Shown here piece by piece: positions 1 to 29,936 of a DNA stretch of 64,000 nt (positions within the stretch are counted from its first letter, which is position 1; every line of letters begins with the position of its first letter). The stretch is taken from contig JAXGZF010000012.1 in assembly GCA_040771865.1 (NCBI GenBank), forward strand, positions 1 through 64,000, given 5' to 3'. Both the position numbers and the translations under genes were made by a program. Below the pieces are notes generated by a model that was not told the origin of the DNA, made no database searches, and saw nothing but the letters and a program-made list of their open reading frames with translations. Origin of the DNA: Desulfobacterales bacterium (GTDB taxonomy: Bacteria; Desulfobacterota; Desulfobacteria; Desulfobacterales; UBA2245).

Positions 1-1011
1 TACGGAGATAATTCAGATGACGATACTGAAGTAATAACGATCAATTACACAATGAACAATATTGTGAATGCGGTCGTTGTTAGCGACGCATCGGTGGGAT
101 ATGACATAAACATGGCCAGCGATGCCGCAGTTGCTGACGCCGTTGCGCTTGTACTCGATGGCGTAAATGGATTCTCTGCAACGGTAGAAAGTGATTGGTA
201 TGTGGTTGTTGAGGGAGATGACGGAAACAAGTGCAATATAGATTCAATTGCATTCTCTGGAGACGACGGTGGGTTAAATATCATCATTAATAATGGCGCG
301 GCGCCGGTTCTTCAGGCTGATGTTGCTCAGGAAAGCACGCTTACCGTGGTTGGAACCGCAACAGTCGGTGAGACGTATAACCTGACGGTCACCTTGAAGG
401 ACGGTACTGAAATCATCGCCGATGAATATGAGTCTGTTGGTGGTGAAACTGAAGCCCAGATTGCTGCAGCAATCGCTACAAACTTCAATGCGGTTGCGCC
501 TGCTGGTACTGTTAACGCAGTCGATAACGGTGACGGAACTATTACGTTAGACGATGAAAATGCGGATGACGGTGGTTTCACTGTAACCAACTTCTCAGCA
601 TCCGGCGCCTTTGGTGGCTCCGGCGCTTCCGGTGATCCGGACCCGGCAGCAGATGGCTTGGCATCCGCCGACATCATCACCGACTTCAATCAGAACGGCG
701 ATGATGTTATCTCCCTGGGTCTGGCTGCCGGCATTGGCGGCGTGAGCGGCAACATTGACTTTGCGGCTGCGCAGGCGAGCTATGGTGATGCCTATACAGC
801 TGCCAGTGGCGCCCTTGGCGGGAATGTGATCTACTTTTTCACCTCCATCGAGGCTGATGCAGCTTATGCGGCCACCGCGGACGAGGTGAACGAGGGTGAC
901 ACTGTGGGCTTGTTGTTCTTCGATGCCGACAACAATGGCACTCCTGACGGTGTAATTGCCCTGATCGGTGTCGATGGGTCCATGTTCGCTGCCGGTGACA
1001 TCATTGCCTAA
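1..1011 (+). CDS. C-terminal part of a large acidic secreted surface protein (S-layer/RTX-type T1SS substrate); 5'-truncated by the window
   Basis: Frame is open from base 1 (YGDNSDDDTEVITINYTMNN...). Very rich in D/A/G/T. C-terminus 'ADIITDFNQNGDDVISLG...LLFFDADNNGTPDGVIALIGV...DIIA' resembles T1SS-secreted proteins. Followed by a terminator and sapC-like genes. Confidence 0.7.
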   Translation, partial: YGDNSDDDTEVITINYTMNNIVNAVVVSDASVGYDINMASDAAVADAVALVLDGVNGFSATVESDWYVVVEGDDGNKCNIDSIAFSGDDGGLNIIINNGAAPVLQADVAQESTLTVVGTATVGETYNLTVTLKDGTEIIADEYESVGGETEAQIAAAIATNFNAVAPAGTVNAVDNGDGTITLDDENADDGGFTVTNFSASGAFGGSGASGDPDPAADGLASADIITDFNQNGDDVISLGLAAGIGGVSGNIDFAAAQASYGDAYTAASGALGGNVIYFFTSIEADAAYAATADEVNEGDTVGLLFFDADNNGTPDGVIALIGVDGSMFAAGDIIA

Positions 1012-1068
1012 TTAACCTCAACCAGCCTGCCTGAGTTGGCGGCAGGCTTGACCAGAAACAGTAAAACA

Positions 1069-1108
1069 AAAGCCCCCGGCTTCGAAGTAAAAAGAAGCCG
1101 GGGGCTTT
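1069..1108 (+). terminator. Strong hairpin, probable intrinsic terminator after the surface-protein gene
   Basis: AAAGCCCCCGGCTTC (1069-1083) pairs perfectly with GAAGCCGGGGGCTTT (1094-1108). A second small hairpin lies at 1024-1048. Confidence 0.8.
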
Positions 1109-1136
1109 ATCATTCAGCTTCAATACCTGAAACGTC

Positions 1137-1943
1137 ATGACGCACCCATTTTTACTGCTTGATGCCAAACAGCACCGGCAACACGGCTGGAAGCGGTCGA
1201 CGGATTTTAGATTTTCCCAGGCCCACGCCTGGGCGCCCCTGCTGGTTGCCGAAATATCCCGCGCACTGGCCGTCTTTCCGATGGCGTTCGTTCGGCCTTC
1301 CGCAGGTGAATATCAACTGGTGGCGCTGCTGGGAATGCACAAGGGACATAACCTCTTTGTCGACAGCGCCGGAAAATGGATCGGGGATTATATTCCCAGC
1401 CACTATCGCGCCTACCCCTTCAGCATGATCGAGACCTTGCAGGGCGACAAGCGTGTTTACGGGTTGGGATTTTACCAGCGCAGCGGTCTCTACCGGGAAA
1501 GTCCGAACCCGGAGCAGGGGGAGGAACGCTTTTTTGACGATGAAGGCAAACTTCAGCCCTTCATGGAAAAATTACTGACCTTTCTGAAGGCCACGACGGT
1601 CAGCCACCGGCAGACCCAGACCGCGGTCGGTGCGCTGGCGCAGGCCGGTTTGCTGATACCGTGGCACCTGCCTGCCGAAGAACCGCAAGCGGACCAGCCT
1701 CCGTTGCAGGGGCTTTACCGCATCGACGAAAAAGCCCTGACCGCCCTCAAGGGACCCGCTCTGGAGACCCTGCACCGGGCCGGCGCCTTGGCAATCGCCT
1801 ACGGTCAGCTGTTCTCCGTGTCCCGCATCAATCTGCTGCGGACCCTGCTCAAGCTAAAACAGCCCGCCCCGCCGCCGACCGGACTCGACCTCGAAAAACT
1901 CTTCGACAAAAAGGACGATATCTTCAAATTCGGCGAAATCTAA
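1137..1943 (+). CDS. SapC family protein (paralogue 1)
   Basis: Motifs 'APLLVAEI..FPMAF', 'NLFVD..GKW.GDYIP..YRAYPF' and 'GALAIAYGQLFS' are typical of SapC-like proteins. Confidence 0.85.
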   Translation: MTHPFLLLDAKQHRQHGWKRSTDFRFSQAHAWAPLLVAEISRALAVFPMAFVRPSAGEYQLVALLGMHKGHNLFVDSAGKWIGDYIPSHYRAYPFSMIETLQGDKRVYGLGFYQRSGLYRESPNPEQGEERFFDDEGKLQPFMEKLLTFLKATTVSHRQTQTAVGALAQAGLLIPWHLPAEEPQADQPPLQGLYRIDEKALTALKGPALETLHRAGALAIAYGQLFSVSRINLLRTLLKLKQPAPPPTGLDLEKLFDKKDDIFKFGEI

Positions 1944-1946
1944 AGA

Positions 1947-2054
1947 GGGGGACGTTGTTGACAAAGTGAACTTACGTTGTTTTCTTCCTCCTTACCCCGC
2001 TTACACCCCCAGGTGGCGCGCAGTTTTTAAGGCGAGCCGACATCCTTCCGTCAA
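1947..2054 (+). repeat. 108-bp direct repeat copy 1, starting with the 27-bp RAYT-associated repeat
   Basis: Matches 2746-2853 with 6 mismatches by manual alignment. Begins GGGGGACGTTGTTGACAAAGTGAACTTA, 3 nt after the sapC1 stop. Confidence 0.95.
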
Positions 2055-2096
2055 GAAAGAATTGGGAACGCGCCAAAAGACAAAGAACAAAAAGGT

Positions 2097-2124
2097 TAGA
2101 CTTCCATCCGAAATCTGGTATATT
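2097..2124 (+). promoter_or_regulatory. Possible sigma70 promoter for the TA pair
   Basis: TAGACT-16 nt-TATATT with an extended -10 (TGn at 2116-2118). Confidence 0.3.
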
Positions 2125-2234
2125 TTAGTCAATAAATTACGCCGTTGAAATCGGTCTTGCAATGAAAGGGACGCAAGAGACCATGACGTTGATTCAGCCG
2201 TTTTGCGAATCAACAATATTGCGAGGAGCATCGA

Positions 2235-2471
2235 ATGCCAACGGTGTTCAGGGTTGGCCCCTATCGATTCTTTTTTTATGCCGGTGATCGCGATGAACCT
2301 TACCACATTCATGTCGAACGCGATGAAAATGTGGCAAAGTACTGGTTGGATCCAATCCATCTTCAGAACAGCGGCGGATTTAATCGTTTTGAATTAAAGC
2401 AAATTCACAGCATTATTGAGAAAAATCAGGAGTTGCTCATAGAGGCATGGCATGAATATTTTGGCCTTTGA
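2235..2471 (+). CDS. DUF4160 family protein, putative type II toxin
   Basis: 'MPTVFRVGPYRFFFYAGDRDEPYHIHV...AKYWL...IEAWHEYF'; GAGGAG RBS upstream; overlaps the DUF2442 gene. Confidence 0.85.
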   Translation: MPTVFRVGPYRFFFYAGDRDEPYHIHVERDENVAKYWLDPIHLQNSGGFNRFELKQIHSIIEKNQELLIEAWHEYFGL

Positions 2472-2760
2472 GATCAAAATTCCCCTTGCCGTCGATGTCC
2501 ATTTGACTGATGATACCTTGACGGTTGATCTCAGTGATGGACGCACCATTTCGGTTCCATTGGTTTGGTATCCCCGTCTTGATCACGCCAGTTCGGAGGA
2601 GCGCCTGAATTGGAGGTTTATCGGAAAAGGTCAAGGCATCCACTGGGAGGATTTAGACGAAGACATAAGCGTCGAGGGCCTGATTGCAGGCAAACCCTCC
2701 GCCGAGAGCAAAACATCCCTCAAAAAATGGCTTCAGGGCAGAACTGGGGGACGTTGTTGA
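2452..2760 (+). CDS. DUF2442 family protein, putative antitoxin
   Basis: 'LTVDLSDGRTISVPLVWYPRL..AS.EER.NW..IG.GQGIHWEDLDEDISVEGL'. The stop TGA lies inside the downstream repeat. Confidence 0.85.
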   Translation: MNILAFEIKIPLAVDVHLTDDTLTVDLSDGRTISVPLVWYPRLDHASSEERLNWRFIGKGQGIHWEDLDEDISVEGLIAGKPSAESKTSLKKWLQGRTGGRC

Positions 2761-2985
2761 CAAAGTGAACTTACTTTGTTTTCTTCCTCCTTACCCCGCC
2801 TTCACTCCCAGGTGGGACGCAGTTTTTAAGGCGAGCCGACATCCTTCCGTCAATGATTTTTCAAATCGCCGATGTGAAGACTTCCAGCCGTCTGGCGGTA
2901 TCGGTCAGAGAAACACAAAAACCGCCGTTCGGCTCGGCGGCCGGCAATGCATTTGCTTAAGTTCATTTAGTCAACAACGTCCCCC
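2746..2985. mobile_element. 240-bp non-autonomous element (MITE/REPIN-like) bounded by inverted copies of the 27-bp repeat
   Basis: Left end GGGGGACGTTGTTGACAAAGTGAACTTA (2746-2773); right end TAAGTTCATTTAGTCAACAACGTCCCCC (2958-2985). The interior contains a transposase 3' remnant. Confidence 0.8.
2843..2945 (-). pseudogene. Decayed fragment of the RAYT C-terminal HTH coding region
   Basis: Minus-strand translation AAEPNGGFCVSLTDTARRLEVFTSAI*KIIDGR versus intact AVELTEDFGLSMAETARQLGVSISAIRKIIERR: 16/33 identical, internal stop at 2861-2863. Confidence 0.85.
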
Positions 2986-3132
2986 TCCCCGGTTCGTCCT
3001 TTACATATTCGTCATGCCGTGGTAAGAACCCCAAACCATGGGAAGAGTTTCAACCCCTGAGACATATTATCGGGCATGAAAAATTCCATTTTTGCCAATC
3101 ATTAACCAAACTGACAAAGGAGGAATACAAGC

Positions 3133-3378
3133 ATGAACATATTATTGATTGAAAAACTAGGCGCCGTATCCATGAGAAATGGAATGGTCCGCATACAGTG
3201 CATCGCCACCGGCGCGGACGGGCAGGACCAGATCACCGGCGAGCTGGTGATTCCGGCGGTTCAGTACGGCATGGTAGCCGGCGGCATGTACGCCGCGGGC
3301 AAGCAGCTTAAGGAGAAAATCGAGCAGGCCCGCGCTGCCCAGGAAGAAAGCAAGGCTTCCGATAAATCCCTTCAGTAG
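3133..3378 (+). CDS. Small hypothetical protein of the surface/SapC locus
   Basis: Strong AAGGAGG RBS, 81 aa, co-oriented with the sapC genes. Confidence 0.75.
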   Translation: MNILLIEKLGAVSMRNGMVRIQCIATGADGQDQITGELVIPAVQYGMVAGGMYAAGKQLKEKIEQARAAQEESKASDKSLQ

Positions 3379-3382
3379 CATT

Positions 3383-3407
3383 GGGGGACGTTGTTGACTA
3401 AGTGAAC
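3383..3407 (+). repeat. 27-bp RAYT-associated repeat copy
   Basis: GGGGGACGTTGTTGACTAAGTGAAC, 4 nt after the 3378 stop. Confidence 0.9.
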
Positions 3408-3450
3408 CAGCGTCTGCGTTGTGATCTCCGTCCGGTTTTCCTGCGAAACC

Positions 3451-3597
3451 GGGTCGTTGTTGACTGAGTGAATTTTTTATCGAGACAACGTGGAGACTCC
3501 ATTTGTCTGTCTGTTTCCGCCAGCGTAAGGCCTATATCGCCGGTCTGCTCGGCAGCGCTCAATGTGCTTGTAAGTTCATTTAGTCAACAACGTCCCC
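3451..3597. mobile_element. 147-bp non-autonomous element bounded by inverted repeat copies, containing a second transposase 3' remnant
   Basis: GGGTCGTTGTTGACTGAGTGAA (from 3451) ... TAAGTTCATTTAGTCAACAACGTCCCC (3571-3597). The minus-strand interior reads AAEQTGDIGLTLAETDRQ/GVST, with a 1-nt frameshift relative to the transposase. Confidence 0.75.
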
Positions 3598-4558
3598 TTC
3601 TTTCGATGATTTTGCGGATCGCCGATATGGAAACTCCCAGCTGTCTGGCTGTTTCCGCCATGGAAAGACCGAAGTCTTCGGTCAGTTCGACGGCCAACCT
3701 TGACCGAACGGCGGAAACGCTGCGGCGACGGCTGCCGGAGGTCAAAAGGATTTCCTTCATCCCTTCGTCCCGGCAAACCCCGAGGACACGTTGCCGAGCT
3801 CTGTCGATCCTTTCGATCAGCGGCAATTGGCGCTTGATTTTTTGCTCCGTCTCAGCAAGCACTGCCTCGACGAACTCGCCGCTGCCAAGGATTCGCTCGT
3901 CGCTTCTTTCGAATGAGCCGGAACTGCGCGATGCCTTGACGGCCGACCAGCCTCCCATGGACCGGATCAAACCGCCGCCCACCAATTCGGGGCGCCTTCC
4001 CTGCGCGATTCCTTTCTGCACAAAGTCCCTGTAGGCATTTCGGGCTTCATTTTCCAGTTTCCCGAAGCACCTGAGCACATAGCCGGCATCCTGCCATGGC
4101 GTTTGATTGTTGCCCATAATGCAGGAATGTCCGCACCAGGGATGGCGGTCCAGTTCGGCCATCGATGCCACGATGCCGGCCCGCAAAGGATTTAAATGAA
4201 TATATCGAACCAATTCCGTGAAATAGGCATTCTCTTGACATATGATGGATTTGTAGCGATTCTGAAAAAGGTGGCCGCAGCGCTGGCGGCGGCGATTGAA
4301 TGATACGGCGTAGCCGGTCAGAAAGCGCCTCATGAAAACAGGCAAGCCCTCGGGCCCGCTGCGAAGCAGAATATGGGCATGATTGTTCATCAGCGCCCAG
4401 GCGAAAATGGAAGTGGCCGTAGAAAGCGCGAGATCTCCCATTCGGGTTCGGAAATCATCCCGGTCCTTATCGTTGCACACGATGTCTCTGCGCTCGATTC
4501 CCCGAAGGATGACGTGATGCAGGGTTCCGGGCGCATCGAGTCGCGGGCCTCTGGGCAT
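3584..4558 (-). CDS. HUH/Y1 tyrosine transposase, REP-associated (RAYT/TnpA-REP type), with C-terminal HTH
   Basis: 'MPRGPRLDAPGTLHHVILRGIERR', HUH motif 'LMNNHAHILL', 'GHLFQNRYKS', 'YIHLNP.RAG' and a C-terminal HTH. Start taken at ATG 4558. The stop lies inside a repeat. Confidence 0.9.
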   Translation of the reverse strand: MPRGPRLDAPGTLHHVILRGIERRDIVCNDKDRDDFRTRMGDLALSTATSIFAWALMNNHAHILLRSGPEGLPVFMRRFLTGYAVSFNRRRQRCGHLFQNRYKSIICQENAYFTELVRYIHLNPLRAGIVASMAELDRHPWCGHSCIMGNNQTPWQDAGYVLRCFGKLENEARNAYRDFVQKGIAQGRRPELVGGGLIRSMGGWSAVKASRSSGSFERSDERILGSGEFVEAVLAETEQKIKRQLPLIERIDRARQRVLGVCRDEGMKEILLTSGSRRRSVSAVRSRLAVELTEDFGLSMAETARQLGVSISAIRKIIERRGRC

Positions 4559-4602
4559 CTGGTTGCCTTGTTTGGGTGGCCTTGTTTTGAAGGAATGGTG
4601 AA

Positions 4603-4631
4603 ACAATACGCGCTTTAGTTCAATTAGTCAA
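4603..4631 (-). promoter_or_regulatory. Putative sigma70 promoter of the transposase, with its -35 inside the repeat
   Basis: Minus strand TTGACT (4631-4626), 17 nt, TATTGT (4608-4603). Confidence 0.55.
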
Positions 4632-4641
4632 CAACGTCCCC
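4616..4641 (-). repeat. 27-bp RAYT-associated repeat copy upstream of the transposase
   Basis: Reverse complement reads GGGGACGTTGTTGACTAATTGAACTA. Confidence 0.9.
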
Positions 4642-4648
4642 AAAAGAA

Positions 4649-4677
4649 TTGACGCATGCTTTTTTATTTTATAAAGT
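4649..4677 (+). promoter_or_regulatory. Possible sigma70 promoter for the downstream hypothetical gene and sapC2
   Basis: TTGACG-17 nt-TAAAGT in an AT-rich context. Confidence 0.4.
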
Positions 4678-4806
4678 AGTAATTCGAAGTGGTTCTGAAA
4701 CATCGAAACGAGTTGGTTTCGCAATTTTGAAGGCGATCCCTTAATAGGTCATGAGTAAAACGTTTTTACGGGCCGTTGACGGTCCCAGCGGAAAGATCAA
4801 ACCTGA

Positions 4807-5313
4807 ATGACGCCCACTCTTCTGCAACGTCTGACCACCGTCTACATCCCTACCGAGGACCGGATCCGCATTTCGGCCGAAGACAACAAGGGCCGGGTCG
4901 TCGTGTTATGGCTGACGCAACGCCTTCTGAAGCGGCTTGTTCCCGCTCTCGTCGAATGGCATGAAAAGCGCATGGGAAATTCCATCGGAGCCGATGTTCG
5001 GCAGAGTTTTGCGCAAATCAGCGCCGTAAGCTGCCTGGCGCCCCAGCCGCCCGTTGATTCGGAAGCATCCATCGATGCGGGTGCGATCGAATCGATCGAT
5101 ATCAAGCGCGGGGTCGATGGCGTACGCCTGGTGTTCAAGACCTGCCGCTTCGAACCGGCGGAAGTGGCGTTAGGCGAGTTGATGCTCCGGCAATGGCTCG
5201 ACATCGTCTATCGCATCTGCGTAATGGCCGAATGGACGAGCATCCCGTGGCCGTCATGGCTGCAGGAGTCTTGTTGTGCGGGACAATCCGAAGGAAGAAG
5301 GGTTCTTCATTGA
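4807..5313 (+). CDS. Hypothetical protein of the SapC/T1SS locus
   Basis: 168-aa ORF 'LQRLTTVYIPTEDRIRI...VLWLTQRLLKRLVP', co-oriented with the locus. Confidence 0.7.
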   Translation: MTPTLLQRLTTVYIPTEDRIRISAEDNKGRVVVLWLTQRLLKRLVPALVEWHEKRMGNSIGADVRQSFAQISAVSCLAPQPPVDSEASIDAGAIESIDIKRGVDGVRLVFKTCRFEPAEVALGELMLRQWLDIVYRICVMAEWTSIPWPSWLQESCCAGQSEGRRVLH

Positions 5314-5475
5314 AAAAAGGTCGTTATTGCGGAAAACGGTTCTTTTACTGTGGACATCCCCAAAAAATGTATTATACGTATGCTTGCTGAATTACTTAGT
5401 ATAATTTCCTTTTTTTATAAAGAGCGGCATGGATTGTTTTCATAATAACGAGGAGAAACAGAAAGGATAGGTTCA

Positions 5476-6201
5476 ATGGCGCAAAACATTTACCAGAAGC
5501 CCATTTATTTAAACTCTGTCAATCACAAGTTCGTGAAGGTGGCGCCTGTCAGCAATTACAAGTTTGCCCGGGAATCGAACTCTGCCTTGATCGTCGGCAA
5601 TGATTTTCAGGAAGCGGCGAAGTGTTTTCCAGTGGTTTTCACAAAGGACCCGGAAGGCGCCATAGTTCCTGTTGCCATTCTGGGTTTGAAGAATAACGAG
5701 AACCTTTTTGTCGATGAAAACGGCGTGTGGCGTGTCGGCACATACGTTCCCGCCTATTTTCGCCGTTACCCCTTTATTTTGGCCAAAAGCGCCGATCAAG
5801 ACGGCCGGTTTTCGGTGTGCGTGGATTCCGGGTATGAGGGATTCGGCAGCGAAGAGGGCATGCAGCTTTTCGACGGGGAAGGCAATCAGACCGAGGAATT
5901 TAAAAAGGCGATCGAGCTGTTGCGCGTTTACCAGGCCCAGTTTGACCATACCCGGAACCTGATCAAGATTCTGGATGAATATGGGCTCTTCAAGGAAGTG
6001 GCGGCAACCATCACGCTGCCGGAGGGAGAAAAGATCGGTTTGGGCGGTCTGCTGATGGTCAATGAAGAGGCGATGCTCAAGATGGAAGACGAGAAGATTC
6101 TCCGACTTTTCCGGCCCGGCTACTTCGGATTGATTTATGCCCATCTTTCCTCTTTGACCAATTTCCGTGCATTGATGGCGATCGCAAATGAAAGAAAATA
6201 A
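5476..6201 (+). CDS. SapC family protein (paralogue 2)
   Basis: 'FPVVF...PVAILGL..NENLFVD..G.W...YVPAYFRRYPFILA...LIYAHLSSL.NF'. Confidence 0.9.
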   Translation: MAQNIYQKPIYLNSVNHKFVKVAPVSNYKFARESNSALIVGNDFQEAAKCFPVVFTKDPEGAIVPVAILGLKNNENLFVDENGVWRVGTYVPAYFRRYPFILAKSADQDGRFSVCVDSGYEGFGSEEGMQLFDGEGNQTEEFKKAIELLRVYQAQFDHTRNLIKILDEYGLFKEVAATITLPEGEKIGLGGLLMVNEEAMLKMEDEKILRLFRPGYFGLIYAHLSSLTNFRALMAIANERK

Positions 6202-6206
6202 AAAAA

Positions 6207-6234
6207 GGGGGGCGTTGTTGACGAAGTGAACTTA
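6207..6234 (+). repeat. 27-bp RAYT-associated repeat copy (solo)
   Basis: GGGGGGCGTTGTTGACGAAGTGAACTTA, 5 nt after the sapC2 stop. Confidence 0.85.
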
Positions 6235-6458
6235 TGCAGTTGACCCCCTTGCTCCGACTCTCTCTTTGCGGTCTGCGCATGGGTCGCCCTGCTTTTGGCG
6301 AATATGGCGGCGCAAACACACGGGATTTTCGGGCGCTTTCGGACATTACTTCTTGCCAAAAAGGGCCAATCCTGATAGAAAATTTCCGGTCATGCGTCCG
6401 CAGCCGAAGGATGCATGACCGGTTGCTTCTGATTCAATCAAAATGAAGGAGAAAAGCC

Positions 6459-7178
6459 TTGTTCGCAAATGCTAAACCGCTGGATAAAAAGGTTCATCAA
6501 CATTTAAAATTTTCGCCGGCCAAGGGCTACCAGTTTGCCGAGGATATCCCCGCATCAGTCCTCAGCCATCTGGAGATGGCTGCGGCTTCGAGGTATTATC
6601 CTATTGTTTTTTTAACCGGGGGAGACAACAATCCCTGCATGCCGCATGCGCTGCTGACCCTGAAGCAGAAAAAAAACGCCTTTGTCACGGATGACGGCGT
6701 CTGGGCCGCGGGGTATATTCCCATGCACATTCAGCGCTATCCATTTATTCTGGGCCGGGCGGCCAAGCAAAAGAACTATGTCGTGATGATCGATGAGAAC
6801 GCGCCTCAATTTCAGAGCGATAAAGGGGTCCCTTTGTTTGACGACACAGGGGAGGCCACCGATTTTCTGAAGAATACAATCGCCTTTCTGGAGAAGTACA
6901 TCAAGGATCTTGAAATCACCCGACTTCTGGTTCAGGAAATCGACAAGAGCGGGCTGCTGATGCCGATGAAGGCCAAAGACGGCCCGAAGGGCGAGGCAAA
7001 GATTCTGAAGGGTTTCCAAACCATCGATGCGCAAAAAATGCTCAAACTCGATGACGCCACGCTGGCCGGATGGGTTCGCAAGGGCATCATGCCCATGATT
7101 CACGCCCATCTGACCTCCTTGGCCAATTTCAACGACCTGGCGAAATTGCAGGGTCTGAAACCGCCGTTTAGGGCCTAA
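6459..7178 (+). CDS. SapC family protein (paralogue 3)
   Basis: TTG start with AAGGAG RBS; 'YPIVF...YIPMHIQRYPFIL...IHAHLTSLANF'. Confidence 0.88.
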   Translation: MFANAKPLDKKVHQHLKFSPAKGYQFAEDIPASVLSHLEMAAASRYYPIVFLTGGDNNPCMPHALLTLKQKKNAFVTDDGVWAAGYIPMHIQRYPFILGRAAKQKNYVVMIDENAPQFQSDKGVPLFDDTGEATDFLKNTIAFLEKYIKDLEITRLLVQEIDKSGLLMPMKAKDGPKGEAKILKGFQTIDAQKMLKLDDATLAGWVRKGIMPMIHAHLTSLANFNDLAKLQGLKPPFRA

Positions 7179-7452
7179 CGGTTTCGGTCGGCTCAAAGGG
7201 AACGAAGCGGCTGATTTATTCGGGCCGTTTGATTTGTTTGCCGCCGCCGCGGCGTCCTGAGTCCAAGCTTTTCAGATTTCGAGTTTTATCGGGTTCATCC
7301 GGTTTCAGCGGACCTTGAACAGAGGGAAAGGCCGAACGTCCTTTCCCTCTGTTCGTAGACGGTCGGATTGGGCGATAGAAAACGGTTTGCAATGGCCCTG
7401 TTTTGAATTGAAACGGAGTTCGGCGCCGACAACCGCGCTGAAGTTAAAATCC

Positions 7453-7851
7453 ATGAATCCAGACACGGCCTTTGAACGTTGGTTCGAATCCATGCCGGTC
7501 GCGCATCGCGGCCAGTTGTGTCTGCTCTTTTTCTTTCTGACGGGGGAGCGGACCGATGATTTTTTTCTGTCGGACGAGGAGGCCCTGCGACGCTTTTCCC
7601 TGTTCTGCACCCGGCCCGATTTTCCGGTGCGCCGGGTTGCCCGGCTGCTGCTGATCCGGGCGGTTTTCAGTTTTGTTCTGCGGACCGAGGATGTTGAGCG
7701 GTTTCTGGAACTCATGCCCGGTTCCATGCGTTCGGAGGCCGTTCCGATCGAAGGCTTCCAGTGGCTGCGCACGCTCAGGGCCTGGGACCGGCTCTGCAAG
7801 ACCGGACTGTCCGACGAAAGCCTCTACAGATGGCTGGAATCGATTCAATGA
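7453..7851 (+). CDS. Hypothetical protein
   Basis: ORF translationally coupled (ATGA overlap) to the next gene. Start is uncertain. Confidence 0.55.
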   Translation: MNPDTAFERWFESMPVAHRGQLCLLFFFLTGERTDDFFLSDEEALRRFSLFCTRPDFPVRRVARLLLIRAVFSFVLRTEDVERFLELMPGSMRSEAVPIEGFQWLRTLRAWDRLCKTGLSDESLYRWLESIQ

Positions 7852-8783
7852 ATCAAAATTACTGCCCCGATGTCTTTGCAGTGCTGGTGACGTACAATCC
7901 CGACAGGCAGGTGCTCAGTGCAACGCTGAGGGCTGTATGGGATCAGGTGGCAAAGGTCATTATTGTGGACAATGCTTCCTCGGATTTTCCATTGGACGTG
8001 CTTGGCATGCATGAGGGCCGGCGTTCCGCGGAACTGCATCTGGTCCGGCTCGAAAAGAATCTGGGAATCGCCGCTGGTCTGAATGTCGGCATTCGGCAAT
8101 CCATTGCGCGGGGTGCGGAATTGGTGCTGCTTCTGGATCAGGATAGCCAGGCTGCGCCGGATATGGCGGCCAGGCTGCGATGCGCATACGACGCTCTTCG
8201 GCGTAAAAATGTCCGCGTGGCGGCTCTTGGGCCCCGTTACTGCGACCCGGACGGCGGGGCATTGTCGGGTTTTGTCCGTGTCGGGCGCGCGTGTTTCGTT
8301 CGTCGGGAGCGCGACCGGAACGGCGAGGCCGTGGAAGCGGATTTTCTGCTTTCCTCCGGATCCCTGCTTCCGGTTGAGGCCCTCTGTCGGACGGGGTTGA
8401 TGGATGAGGGCCTTTTTGTCGACCGTGTGGACATGGAATGGTGCTTTCGCGCCAAATTCCTGGGGTTTCGGATTTTTGGCGTCGGCGATGCATTCATGAC
8501 CCATGCGTTAGGTGACCGGCGCAAAGTGATCCGGTTTTTTCGCAATCGAACCGTTCCGTTCCACAAGCCGTTCCGGTATTATTATATTTTTCGCAACAGC
8601 CTGCTTCTGTATCGCCGCGCTTACATGCCCTTGGGCTGGAAGATCGCGAACGCGTTCCTTTGTCTGAAAACCGCGGTCTTTTTCGGGCTGGCGGGGGAAA
8701 ACCCCCTCGCCTGCCTGAAAATGATGGGGCTTGGCATTCTTGACGGTCTGAGGGGCGTTTCCGGAAAAAGCGACCGGTTTTGA
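7848..8783 (+). CDS. GT2 glycosyltransferase, rhamnosyltransferase-like
   Basis: 'VLVTYNP', 'IVDNAS', 'NLGIAAGLN.G', 'LLLDQDS', 'SSGSL', 'MDEGLFVD.VD.EWCFRA', 'RYYYIFRN'. Confidence 0.9.
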   Translation: MNQNYCPDVFAVLVTYNPDRQVLSATLRAVWDQVAKVIIVDNASSDFPLDVLGMHEGRRSAELHLVRLEKNLGIAAGLNVGIRQSIARGAELVLLLDQDSQAAPDMAARLRCAYDALRRKNVRVAALGPRYCDPDGGALSGFVRVGRACFVRRERDRNGEAVEADFLLSSGSLLPVEALCRTGLMDEGLFVDRVDMEWCFRAKFLGFRIFGVGDAFMTHALGDRRKVIRFFRNRTVPFHKPFRYYYIFRNSLLLYRRAYMPLGWKIANAFLCLKTAVFFGLAGENPLACLKMMGLGILDGLRGVSGKSDRF

Positions 8784-29045: not shown

Positions 29046-29936
29046 TTACCGGTTCTGAAACGCCCGAATCGTTCCGTTGATCGCGTTTTTAATCTCACGG
29101 GATTTTGAATGGATCATTATGCATCCGTATCTGAGGTTTTTTCCCATCAGGTCCGGATAATGTTTGATGCTGGTTTTCAGCTTCATTCCATTGGATCTCA
29201 CCTTGCAAAAGAGATTGCCCTCCTTGCCGATCACCCGTGTTTCTCCTTTTTTTACCGCATCCAGAAAGGCCCTGCGTGTCGGGGCGCACGCAGCGAAGTT
29301 AACCACCTTGCCGAGCTGATGCAGGGTGTGACCGTCGCTGCCGCCGGTGATCGCCTTGGACAGGTTTAAGCCCAGAACGGCGCACTGCAGATTCCATTTT
29401 TTAAGATTTTCCGAATTGATCGCTTCCACGCCGTCGGCCATGGCAAACAGCTCGCTGCGCCGCTCCATGGAAAACTGCAGGTTGCATACGCCGGTATAGG
29501 CCGCGGAATAAGGGTGGGGAAAGATGATGACGGTCTCGAAACGTCTGGCCCTTTGAATGATTTCTTCCATTTCCAGATCGATCGAGCTCATCAGGTCGGA
29601 CCCCATGTACGGGGCGATGTCCCAGAGATAAAATTTTTCGAGATCCGCGAGCCGGTAAAAGTAGATCAGCAGGTGCGACCCTTCCCGGGCGGTGACCTCG
29701 ATGCCCGGAATGTTGAGAACGTCCGGGTATGCGTCCATCTCAACCGCGCCCTGAATATCGTTGTGGTCGGTCATTGCCACGCCGATGCCGAGTGCGCGCG
29801 CCTGGTCCGCAATCTCTGGTATGGTGTTGGCGCCGTCGGAATGCCGGGAGTGAAAATGCAGATCCACCACCGTGTTGTTCCGGGTCAGTTCGGGAAGATC
29901 GGGTTTTCCAAATTCAATGCGAAAAGAATTGTCCAT
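29046..29936 (-). CDS. PHP domain phosphoesterase
   Basis: 'DLHFHSRHSDG', 'TDHN', 'GIEV', 'HPY', 'GGSDGH'. Confidence 0.88.
   Translation of the reverse strand: MDNSFRIEFGKPDLPELTRNNTVVDLHFHSRHSDGANTIPEIADQARALGIGVAMTDHNDIQGAVEMDAYPDVLNIPGIEVTAREGSHLLIYFYRLADLEKFYLWDIAPYMGSDLMSSIDLEMEEIIQRARRFETVIIFPHPYSAAYTGVCNLQFSMERRSELFAMADGVEAINSENLKKWNLQCAVLGLNLSKAITGGSDGHTLHQLGKVVNFAACAPTRRAFLDAVKKGETRVIGKEGNLFCKVRSNGMKLKTSIKHYPDLMGKNLRYGCIMIHSKSREIKNAINGTIRAFQNR

Follow-up and report, generated by a model that had tools for sequence, protein, structure and literature searches.

A probable TIRtron and its miniature derivatives at a variable surface-protein locus of a Desulfobacterales bacterium

The locus described here raises the question of whether eight copies of a short repeat, packed into 4.3 kb around a transposase gene, a presumed toxin-antitoxin (TA) gene pair and genes of the SapC family, are recombination sites that delimit gene-carrying cassettes, as a preliminary description had proposed, or the ends of a transposable element and of its shortened relatives. 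The locus lies in the 64,000-nt window (the whole stretch of DNA analysed), which forms the start of contig C12 (JAXGZF010000012.1, positions 1 to 64,000) in the assembly of Desulfobacterales bacterium GCA_040771865.1 (2,984,333 bases, 13 contigs, 98% complete; genome G000 in our labels). According to the accessible text of Di Nocera, De Gregorio and Rocco (2013, PMC3733652), TIRtrons are RAYT-like genes flanked by long inverted repeats, and their enzymes are called TIRYTs. Our comparisons indicate that the locus probably consists of one TIRtron with co-oriented non-autonomous derivatives, and that the element and most of these copies are long-standing residents, passed on vertically, of a variable surface-protein region with SapC genes. 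The kind of element has already been described, though little studied, and this locus is another member of it; gene mobilization as a side activity of this TIRtron is a live possibility, to which we would give less weight.

The repeat and the transposase

A pattern search of the window allowing up to three mismatches returned seven copies of the repeat, at 1948+, 2747+, 2984-, 3384+, 3597-, 4641- and 6208+, while none of 100 shuffles contained a match. The eighth copy of the preliminary description (3450-3475+) is degenerate, with 5 mismatches in 26, and the starts are one base off those first quoted. The repeat is about 26 nt long and begins with a 15-nt head, GGGGACGTTGTTGAC. The observation that it occurs nowhere else in the window was confirmed and extended to the whole assembly, in which the same eight copies, all within 4.3 kb, were the total at up to five mismatches; allowing six added two unconvincing matches on other contigs. 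As first noted, no target-site duplication is visible, the flanks being different and the inverted repeat only running 3 nt further. Single copies folded as DNA gave minimum free energies between 0 and -5 kcal/mol, the value being 0 in three of six; one of the six beat its shuffles, and did so through its flank, and the other five were no better than theirs. Because single copies do not fold, the repeats are not hairpins of the repetitive extragenic palindromic (REP) type, and inspection of the sequence found no GTAG tag at either repeat end.

The position of the copies relative to the transposase gene resembles that of terminal inverted repeats (TIRs). The outer pair, 3384+ and 4641-, is 93% complementary over 27 nt, and its gene-5' member (LE, 4616-4641, minus strand) lies 57 nt upstream of the ATG, a position that matches the flanking repeats of relatives. 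In these, the head GGGGACGTTGTTGAC flanks a transposase homolog of about 320 aa in inverted orientation, the two repeats standing about 1.05 kb apart, the upstream one preceding the start codon by about 60-100 nt and the downstream one overlapping the gene end. Such repeats were present on both sides at seven loci (G011:C615, G012:C38, G094:C525, G104:C214, G141:C69, G146:C7 and L030/L035) and on one side at four more homolog loci (G059, G075, G127 and G144), so that the co-occurrence of the repeat with this transposase clade, put forward earlier as a check, is borne out in other genomes. A hand tally gave full-length homologs with at least 55% identity in 22 of 150 further genomes from the order; at least three repeat-head hits (at most one mismatch) were found in 16 of these 22 genomes vs 14 of the 128 others, counts in which kin are not independent. 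A reversed control pattern gave 0-4 hits per genome, and single head hits are therefore meaningless. Compared in this way, the repeats are identified by sequence as the terminal inverted repeats of a TIRYT-type element, that is, a TIRtron, with the caveat that the copy touching the 3' end of the transposase gene in the window is in direct and not in inverted orientation.

The transposase gene (3584-4558, minus strand) encodes a TIRYT-type Y1/HUH protein of 324 aa. The open reading frame (ORF) listed at 3584-4606 starts with a TTG at 4606, and the true start is probably the ATG at 4558, with homologs aligning from residue 17. The protein matched the Pfam family Y1_Tnp (PF01797, 2.4e-9), and its sole NCBIfam match was REP_Tyr_transpos (8.7e-17; 61 bits, under the equivalog cut-off of 80). 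Its translation contains the HUH motif as HAH and the Y---NP motif as YIHLNP, and a C-terminal helix-turn-helix (HTH) is indicated at residues 301-336 of the listed ORF by HTH_23 (4.9e-4) and Sigma70_r4_2 (7.6e-5), both below Pfam cut-offs; the closest homolog, in the relative G144 (71%), matches HTH_23 and Bac_DnaA_C. In the part of Quentin et al. (2018, PMC6006769) that was accessible, most TIRYTs belong to TnpA_REP subclass 2.1, whose members are long and carry an HTH tail (Bac_DnaA_C, HTH_23 or HTH_28) and the Y---NP motif. The preliminary description had called the system RAYT-type, which stands for the enzyme, an HUH/Y1 protein of the RAYT (TnpA_REP) branch, and fails for the repeats, which are TIRs and not REP or REPIN hairpins. 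More than 8000 homologs were found, with source names of 'RayT' or 'transposase', and 95 of 151 genomes of the order match the protein at E <= 1e-20, as many as 15 times in a single genome. Paralogs in the genome of the window are 33-47% identical to it and have GGGG-headed inverted repeats of their own, which fit the motif GGGGWSAS at 8/8 (GGGGTCAG, contig C9) and 7/8 positions; according to both publications (PMC3733652, PMC6006769), most TIRs, though not every one, conform to this motif.

Several observations concern the surroundings of these elements. Upstream of the ATG at 4558, the TTGAC of the repeat supplies a putative -35 box (TTGACT, 17 nt, TATTGT). Beside the closest transposase homolog (L039, G144:C10:38000-50000), an AhpC/TSA gene split in two ORFs (5237-5749) adjoins the 3' end of the homolog, where a 3' repeat was not found at up to three mismatches. 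On contig C3, at about 29,450-29,600, upstream of the paralog C3:28474-29433, eight tandem units of about 17 nt ending in GGGGACGG sit directly outside the inverted repeat of this other TIRYT paralog, and repeats in G141 have runs of 7-nt units behind them (GTCAGAG / GTCGGAG). Short duplications in tandem at the ends seem to be typical of TIRYT elements.

Miniature derivatives, their orientation and the neighbouring genes

Shorter units accompany the full element. The MITE-like (miniature inverted-repeat transposable element) doublet D2 (2747-2984) is composed of a repeat at 2747-2772 (+), a segment X (2773-2844), a remnant of the transposase 3' end (2845-2942) and a repeat at 2959-2984 (-). 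This remnant is 71% identical to gene positions 3598-3695 over 98 nt (E = 2.4e-14), and a single strand of D2 folds through pairing between its two repeats (z = -6). Likewise, the MITE-like doublet D3 (3384-3597) contains a repeat at 3384-3409 (+), the degenerate copy at 3450-3475 (+), a remnant at 3491-3556 that is 73% identical to the transposase 3' end over 67 nt (E = 8e-9), and a repeat at 3572-3597 (-). This last repeat belongs to D3, adjoins the full gene and replaces the gene's own 3' repeat; the last four codons and the stop of the transposase lie in it. Because both units keep a transposase 3'-end remnant, D2 and D3 are classed from their sequence as internal-deletion, MITE-like derivatives of the TIRtron; the mini-elements of the preliminary description are such derivatives, and their short spacers are not arbitrary. 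The third unit, D1 (1948-2054, plus strand), consists of the repeat at 1948-1973 and segment X and is a 108-nt direct repeat of 2746-2853 with 94% identity; in BLAST, D1 matched D2 with 92.6% over 81 nt (E = 1.5e-26), and nothing was significant beyond 2054. A decayed partner repeat of D1 might lie near 2119-2142, a tentative guess matched by eye. The solo copy at 6208-6233 (+) directly follows the stop of the second SapC gene and has an 8-nt insertion at its outer edge in a second strain; the sequence behind it (6234-6458) showed no similarity to D2 or to the transposase gene in BLAST.

The remnants and the full gene are all on the minus strand, and every unit therefore has the same orientation. 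A block of TA genes and a block with the transposase had been described as sharing one architecture in opposite orientations. This is correct for the plain geometry of the repeats but breaks down when the transposase remnants are used to orient the spacers: since all units point one way, the two blocks are not mirror images. Neither are the transposase unit and the cargo unit equivalent, as had been assumed, given that D2 has the TA pair on its gene-3' side and that D3 faces the transposase with its gene-5' side.

One repeat element occupies each of five successive intergenic gaps downstream of a gene, and placement behind genes is known for REP-like repeats. The gene content was as first claimed (SapC, TA genes, transposase), by profile matches. 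The window opens with the end of a gene (1-1011) that encodes the C-terminal portion of a large protein without a known family (no Pfam match), followed by the first SapC gene (1137-1943), whose TAA stop is at the outer side of the repeat. Downstream on the plus strand are DUF4160 (2235-2471) and DUF2442 (2452-2760), with Pfam values of 9e-18 and 1e-23, respectively, which we take to be a TA pair; their ORFs overlap, and the DUF2442 stop codon lies inside the repeat 2747-2772. Between D2 and D3, an ORF of 81 aa (3133-3378, plus strand) of no known family, without a Pfam or NCBIfam match, is a real gene, judging from its conservation in the second strain (ratio of nonsynonymous to synonymous divergence, dN/dS, 0.03). 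Beyond the transposase lie a 168-aa ORF of no family (4807-5313) and the second and third SapC genes (5476-6201 and 6459-7178).

Strains, metagenome junctions and relatives

The second strain is represented by one metagenome contig (loci L048-L051; 4717 bases compared), which is colinear with window positions 6629-1941 at 94% and has all blocks present. Its transposase is intact, with a synonymous divergence (dS) of 0.175 and a dN/dS of 0.18, the latter being 0.17 for the 168-aa ORF and 0.20 for SapC. The colinear layout and the intact transposase in a 94% strain argue that the element is an old, selected resident. The cross-strain comparison, proposed earlier as a way to find swapped cargo or empty sites, revealed none against this strain; layout and cargo are invariant at a dS of about 0.18. 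A genome of the same genus, G001, was rejected as an empty site, being too diverged: only window positions 7448-7877 are common at the DNA level (86%), and at the corresponding place (L024, G001:C32:56000-74000) a 1051-aa protein is followed by a single SapC gene. The number of SapC genes (3 vs 1) and the neighbouring glycosyltransferases differ between the window and G001, and the surface locus is accordingly highly variable. In run X3, another allele of the first SapC gene (window 1930-1947) ends three codons earlier and has the outer letters TAAATAT... before the repeat, which means that the gene/repeat junction varies between strains. In run X6, one contig matches rightwards from window position 2679 (the DUF2442 end and the repeat) and is preceded by 255 nt of unlike sequence; this may be another gene before the same repeat or a recombination break.

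Divergence from the second strain is not uniform. At 1941-2866, none of 926 positions differs from the second-strain contig, while the next 3.7 kb are about 6% divergent. The identical block starts at position 1941 and ends just past the second copy of the 108-nt repeat; it holds this copy along with D1, the TA pair and the repeat 2747. In run X6, a TA unitig (2184-2711) without differences has a depth of 40, compared with 27.8 for the diverged strain, which must therefore share the identical TA block; in run X8, the TA block differs at 14 of 750 positions vs about 5.8% in the flanks. Considering these depths and divergences, the identical block does not look like an assembly chimera. From the contrast of identity and divergence it follows that the TA block has a younger common ancestor than its surroundings, and it seems to have been exchanged between strains recently.

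Junction data were taken from Logan contigs (unitig-type) of four runs from four studies, which are assembled contigs and not reads. A joint between 4202 and 1941 with two extra letters (4202-GG-1941) was found in three of the four runs (three studies), in one contig each, with depths of 5.4-5.9 and sides of 30-36 nt, and the second-strain metagenome contig also ends with it, 9 nt past the joint. Its near end, a recurrent breakpoint at 1941-1947 (+), lies outside repeat 1948, 7 nt from the GGGG end, and coincides with the TAA stop of the first SapC gene. Breakpoint 1941 is common to this joint and to another, 1974-1941, found in one run, in which the 34-nt repeat unit is copied in tandem. The far end (4196-4202) is inside the catalytic-tyrosine codon of the transposase, where the plus strand resembles the inner end of the repeat, possibly by chance. 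The joint may represent a tandem duplication, a circle or a second copy, a duplication at the same locus being among the options. The joints expected of a TA circle or of a site that lacks the TA block, namely 2773-1941 or a 799-nt skip, were absent from the contigs of the four runs, which drop rare forms. The joints 3414-3504, 4192-4305 and 4230-4374 occurred in single runs with low identity or short sides and were rejected as paralog or repeat cross-matches, as were 3072-1948 (run X3) and 2985-3465 (run X6), also single-run joints of low identity or with short sides, as cross-matches.

In relatives, we considered the intervals between neighbouring repeat copies in six genomes including the window, leaving out doublets and transposase units. 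The TA-type families between repeats, several of them pairs of DUF families that we presume to be TA systems, were DUF4160/DUF2442 in the window (G000), DUF2281 with PIN and, separately, PIN in G019, HicAB in G069, DUF4258/DUF2283 and DUF5615 in G141, and a DUF6036/AbiEii-like (NTase) pair and ParE with AbiEi/AbiEii in G144. The other 13 of the 21 gene-bearing intervals contained epimerases, transporters, an AAA_15 and GmrSD pair, an MscS channel, or nothing named. Besides the window, four genomes of different families have TA-type genes enclosed by direct copies, and three repeat clusters (window, G141 and G069) are situated in surface-polysaccharide or surface-layer (S-layer) loci. The copies are co-oriented in G141:C70 (7/7) and G069 (3/3). 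In G144, a 980-nt unit composed of a TA-like pair and the repeat is tandemly duplicated within a 490-kb contig, with 759 nt identical and the second copy interrupted by IS66; the junction of this duplication falls 5 nt beyond the repeat's GGGG end, similar to the offset of 7 nt in the window. Two copies in G141 derive from plain tandem duplication of a gene (an epimerase pair), and G009 has 15 dispersed copies, the four inspected being gene-less doublets or close pairs.

Tabulating the genes between copies, another check suggested at the outset, thus showed that TA and defence types recur but that the closest relatives of the DUF2442 gene stand without the repeat: around the 80 closest DUF2442 loci of other species (61-86% identity, 2.5 kb on either side) there was one repeat-head hit vs three control hits. 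Together with the gene duplication in G141 and the dispersed copies of G009, this speaks against a fixed tie between TA genes and the repeat. Some exact repeat of at least 16 nt is present at 23 of these 80 loci; few of these flank the TA pair, and none is related to the repeat described here. One of the loci near a DUF2442 homolog (L081, 493-745, a metagenome-assembled genome of Campylobacterales) has an unrelated CRISPR-like array with repeats of about 35 nt and a 72-nt period. Metagenome loci with the exact repeat (L045-L047, L052-L056) were rejected as further cases, being singles or one doublet by unrelated genes, none with the TA block; L052, L054 and L055 are one gene, in which the match is inside an ORF and probably due to chance. 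Elsewhere, two outward-facing repeat variants (L027, G025:C6:1-11000, 379-4361) bracket a defence-like pair of an AAA_15 ATPase and a GmrSD-type endonuclease. In L042 (G069:C135, 2351-2440 and 3853-3940), two direct copies are each trailed by a segment of about 60 nt whose ends are inverted and whose orientation is opposite at the two places; the segment may be invertible, or a small foldback element in its own right.

Known systems and competing explanations

The closest known system is the TIRtron with its TIRYT (subclass 2.1, subgroup 2.1.2), which shares with the window a RAYT-like Y1 protein of about 320 aa with HUH, Y---NP and an HTH tail, and non-palindromic GGGG-headed TIRs, the upstream one tens of bases from the start and the downstream one overlapping the gene end. 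Extra repeats also occur there as singles, dimers and groups, the arrangement given for TIRtron families in the accessible text (PMC3733652). The window differs in having all copies in one 4.3-kb locus, in the long dimer spacers (166-186 nt) that keep a transposase remnant, in genes including a TA pair between copies, and in its repeat head. A recurrent break 5-7 nt outside the repeat is not described in those parts of the TIRtron literature that were accessible to us; in that literature, as far as our search reached into it, TIRtrons are known from sequence only, and no report of movement or activity was found.

REPtrons (RAYT genes with REPs or REPINs; Nunvar 2010; Bertels and Rainey 2011; Corneloup 2021, PMC8266576) resemble the window in the enzyme superfamily and branch, in inverted doublets as the non-autonomous unit, in extragenic copies behind genes and in a vertically inherited transposase. 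In contrast to them, the window has no hairpin or GTAG, tens of times fewer copies, a longer protein with HTH and several paralogs per genome. A classical REP/REPIN system, in which a domesticated single-copy RAYT spreads short palindromic REPs as inverted doublets, would account for the branch of the enzyme, the inverted-copy doublets and the vertical inheritance of a gene under purifying selection; nevertheless, with single copies that do not form hairpins, eight copies at one locus, a protein of 324 aa that ends in an HTH, and several paralogs per genome (as many as 15 matches in a genome of the order), we consider it very improbable. Elements of the IS200/IS605 family of insertion sequences (IS608, ISDra2; 'peel and paste') share Y1 HUH chemistry, the lack of a target duplication and cleavage outside the recognised end. 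Strand-specific insertion near their own ends is known for these Y1 elements and would explain co-oriented copies. These elements are further marked by directly oriented sub-terminal hairpins, by a TnpA of only some 150 aa and by many near-identical copies, none of which the window shows (no hairpins, 324 aa, genome paralogs at most 47% identical). One-ended rolling-circle capture of the IS91/ISCR/Helitron type offers a likeness of working: one fixed end at the enzyme site, a variable far end, and tandem or circular junctions that carry genes (1941-4202 in the window, the 980-nt unit in G144). Those systems depend on Y2 or Rep-helicase HUH proteins of other families, and the likeness is one of working only. 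Finally, Laurenceau et al. (bioRxiv 10.1101/2020.03.09.984088) described an association between prochlorosin genes and TnpA_REP in picocyanobacteria. According to the accessible text, the transposase gene is there co-localised with a recurring class of small genes and was proposed as a driver of their diversification; gene class, host and subfamily differ from ours, and a later note by the authors calls the causal link unproven.

The explanation that we find the more probable is that a TIRYT-type transposase (TnpA_REP subclass 2.1), bounded by TIRs of about 26 nt headed GGGGACGTTGTTGAC, would be surrounded by two or three MITE-like doublets and one solo repeat, each behind a gene, the DUF4160/DUF2442 pair being simply caught between two derivative copies. 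The enzyme would bind the repeat, perhaps via its HTH, and nick one strand 5-7 nt outside the GGGG end; strand-specific insertion near sequences that resemble its own ends would produce local co-oriented clusters, and the same nick might occasionally duplicate or exchange adjoining DNA, giving rise to the exchanged TA block and the metagenome junctions. Several findings weigh against this explanation. The clustering of eight copies in 4.3 kb and the recurrent TA genes are not predicted by local hopping and fit cargo better; TA-type Pfam families are in 8 of the 21 intervals of the six genomes (a raw count with no background density of TA genes beside it); and the identity block ends at the edge of the 108-nt repeat, as a site-directed event would. 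The window transposase abuts D3 and has no canonical 3' repeat of its own, and the repeat head GGGGACGT fits 6/8 positions of the published GGGG[AT][CG]A[CG]. A PDB sequence search with the transposase gave no hits, so its fold assignment rests on Pfam and NCBIfam, and the putative action of the enzyme on the repeats is deduced from sequence and assembled contigs.

Alternatively, the repeats might be recombination sites of a transposase-driven cassette or cargo-capture system, in which a direct pair is excised as a one-repeat circle and re-inserted at another repeat. By that route TA pairs and small genes might be shuffled at surface-structure loci, a view that we hold possible but doubtful in both its parts. 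The TA-type intervals, with direct copies bracketing such genes in five genomes including the window, the three clusters at surface-polysaccharide or S-layer loci, the co-oriented arrays of G141:C70 and G069, the duplicated TA and repeat unit in G144, the TA block of run X8 and the identity of 1941-2866, a block with the 108-nt repeat at its edge, in a strain that diverges by about 6% beside it, are consistent with it. However, two strains agree in layout and cargo, and this is evidence against cassettes on terms that the preliminary description had itself set, namely that cargo should vary across strains. Neither a single-repeat circle junction nor an empty site was found among the contigs of the four runs (in which rare forms are dropped). 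The TA block does have a history of its own. The 80 closest DUF2442 loci yielded fewer repeat-core hits than control hits; co-orientation and intergenic placement are expected of strand-specific Y1 elements anyway; the direct copies at the G141 epimerase pair are plain gene duplications; and the inspected copies of G009 carry no genes. As to a second genomic context of the cargo unit, there is the 1941-4202 joint in four data sets, possibly a same-locus duplication, and DUF2442 relatives without the repeat. The data thus do not demonstrate a dedicated cassette system and speak against its strongest form; the repeats may on occasion be involved in the copying of DNA next to them.

Two further alternatives concern the TA pair and its history. 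Integrons commonly carry TA pairs as cargo, and the TIRtron might lie beside integron cassettes, the TA pair and small ORFs being bounded by attC sites. We regard this as extremely unlikely: no integrase exceeded the cut-off in the genome of the host (best TIGR02249 score 85 bits vs 265), no R''...R' core pairs were found on either strand of 1801-6600 (0.66 expected from shuffles), and the TIR itself directly follows each gene. The identity block and the odd joints might also be assembly artefacts of strain switching at the 108-nt repeat, nothing having moved. The switch from 94% to 100% at the repeat edge, the contig that ends 9 nt past the joint and the unitig-type contigs with joint sides of just 30-36 nt would suit this idea, but the same joint with the same two extra letters was found in three runs of three studies and in an independently assembled metagenome contig, the difference-free TA unitig of X6 is deeper than the diverged strain (40 vs 27.8), and the duplication in G144 lies within a 490-kb contig, all of which makes an artefact improbable.

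With the probable TIRtron as the starting point, the live possibility of gene mobilization can be given a more definite, still tentative form: the TIRYT might nick 5-7 nt outside the GGGG and then copy inward from one end, in a rolling-circle-like manner, or form circles, ending at look-alike sites. If so, such one-ended copying would yield tandem or transferable units of the repeat and neighbouring genes. It would explain the presence of TA and defence genes between co-oriented repeats at surface loci in several families of the order, as well as the identical TA block in strains 6% apart and the capture of genes by a RAYT relative presumed to be immobile. Should the cargo reading prove wrong, what is left is an ordinary TIRtron in decay, accompanied by its miniature copies, in a surface-protein region that is variable. 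The shared break outside the repeat, the exchanged block and the duplicated TA unit are hints of TIRtron activity from natural populations, through which the cleavage site of the enzyme and its possible role in mobilising genes become directly testable.

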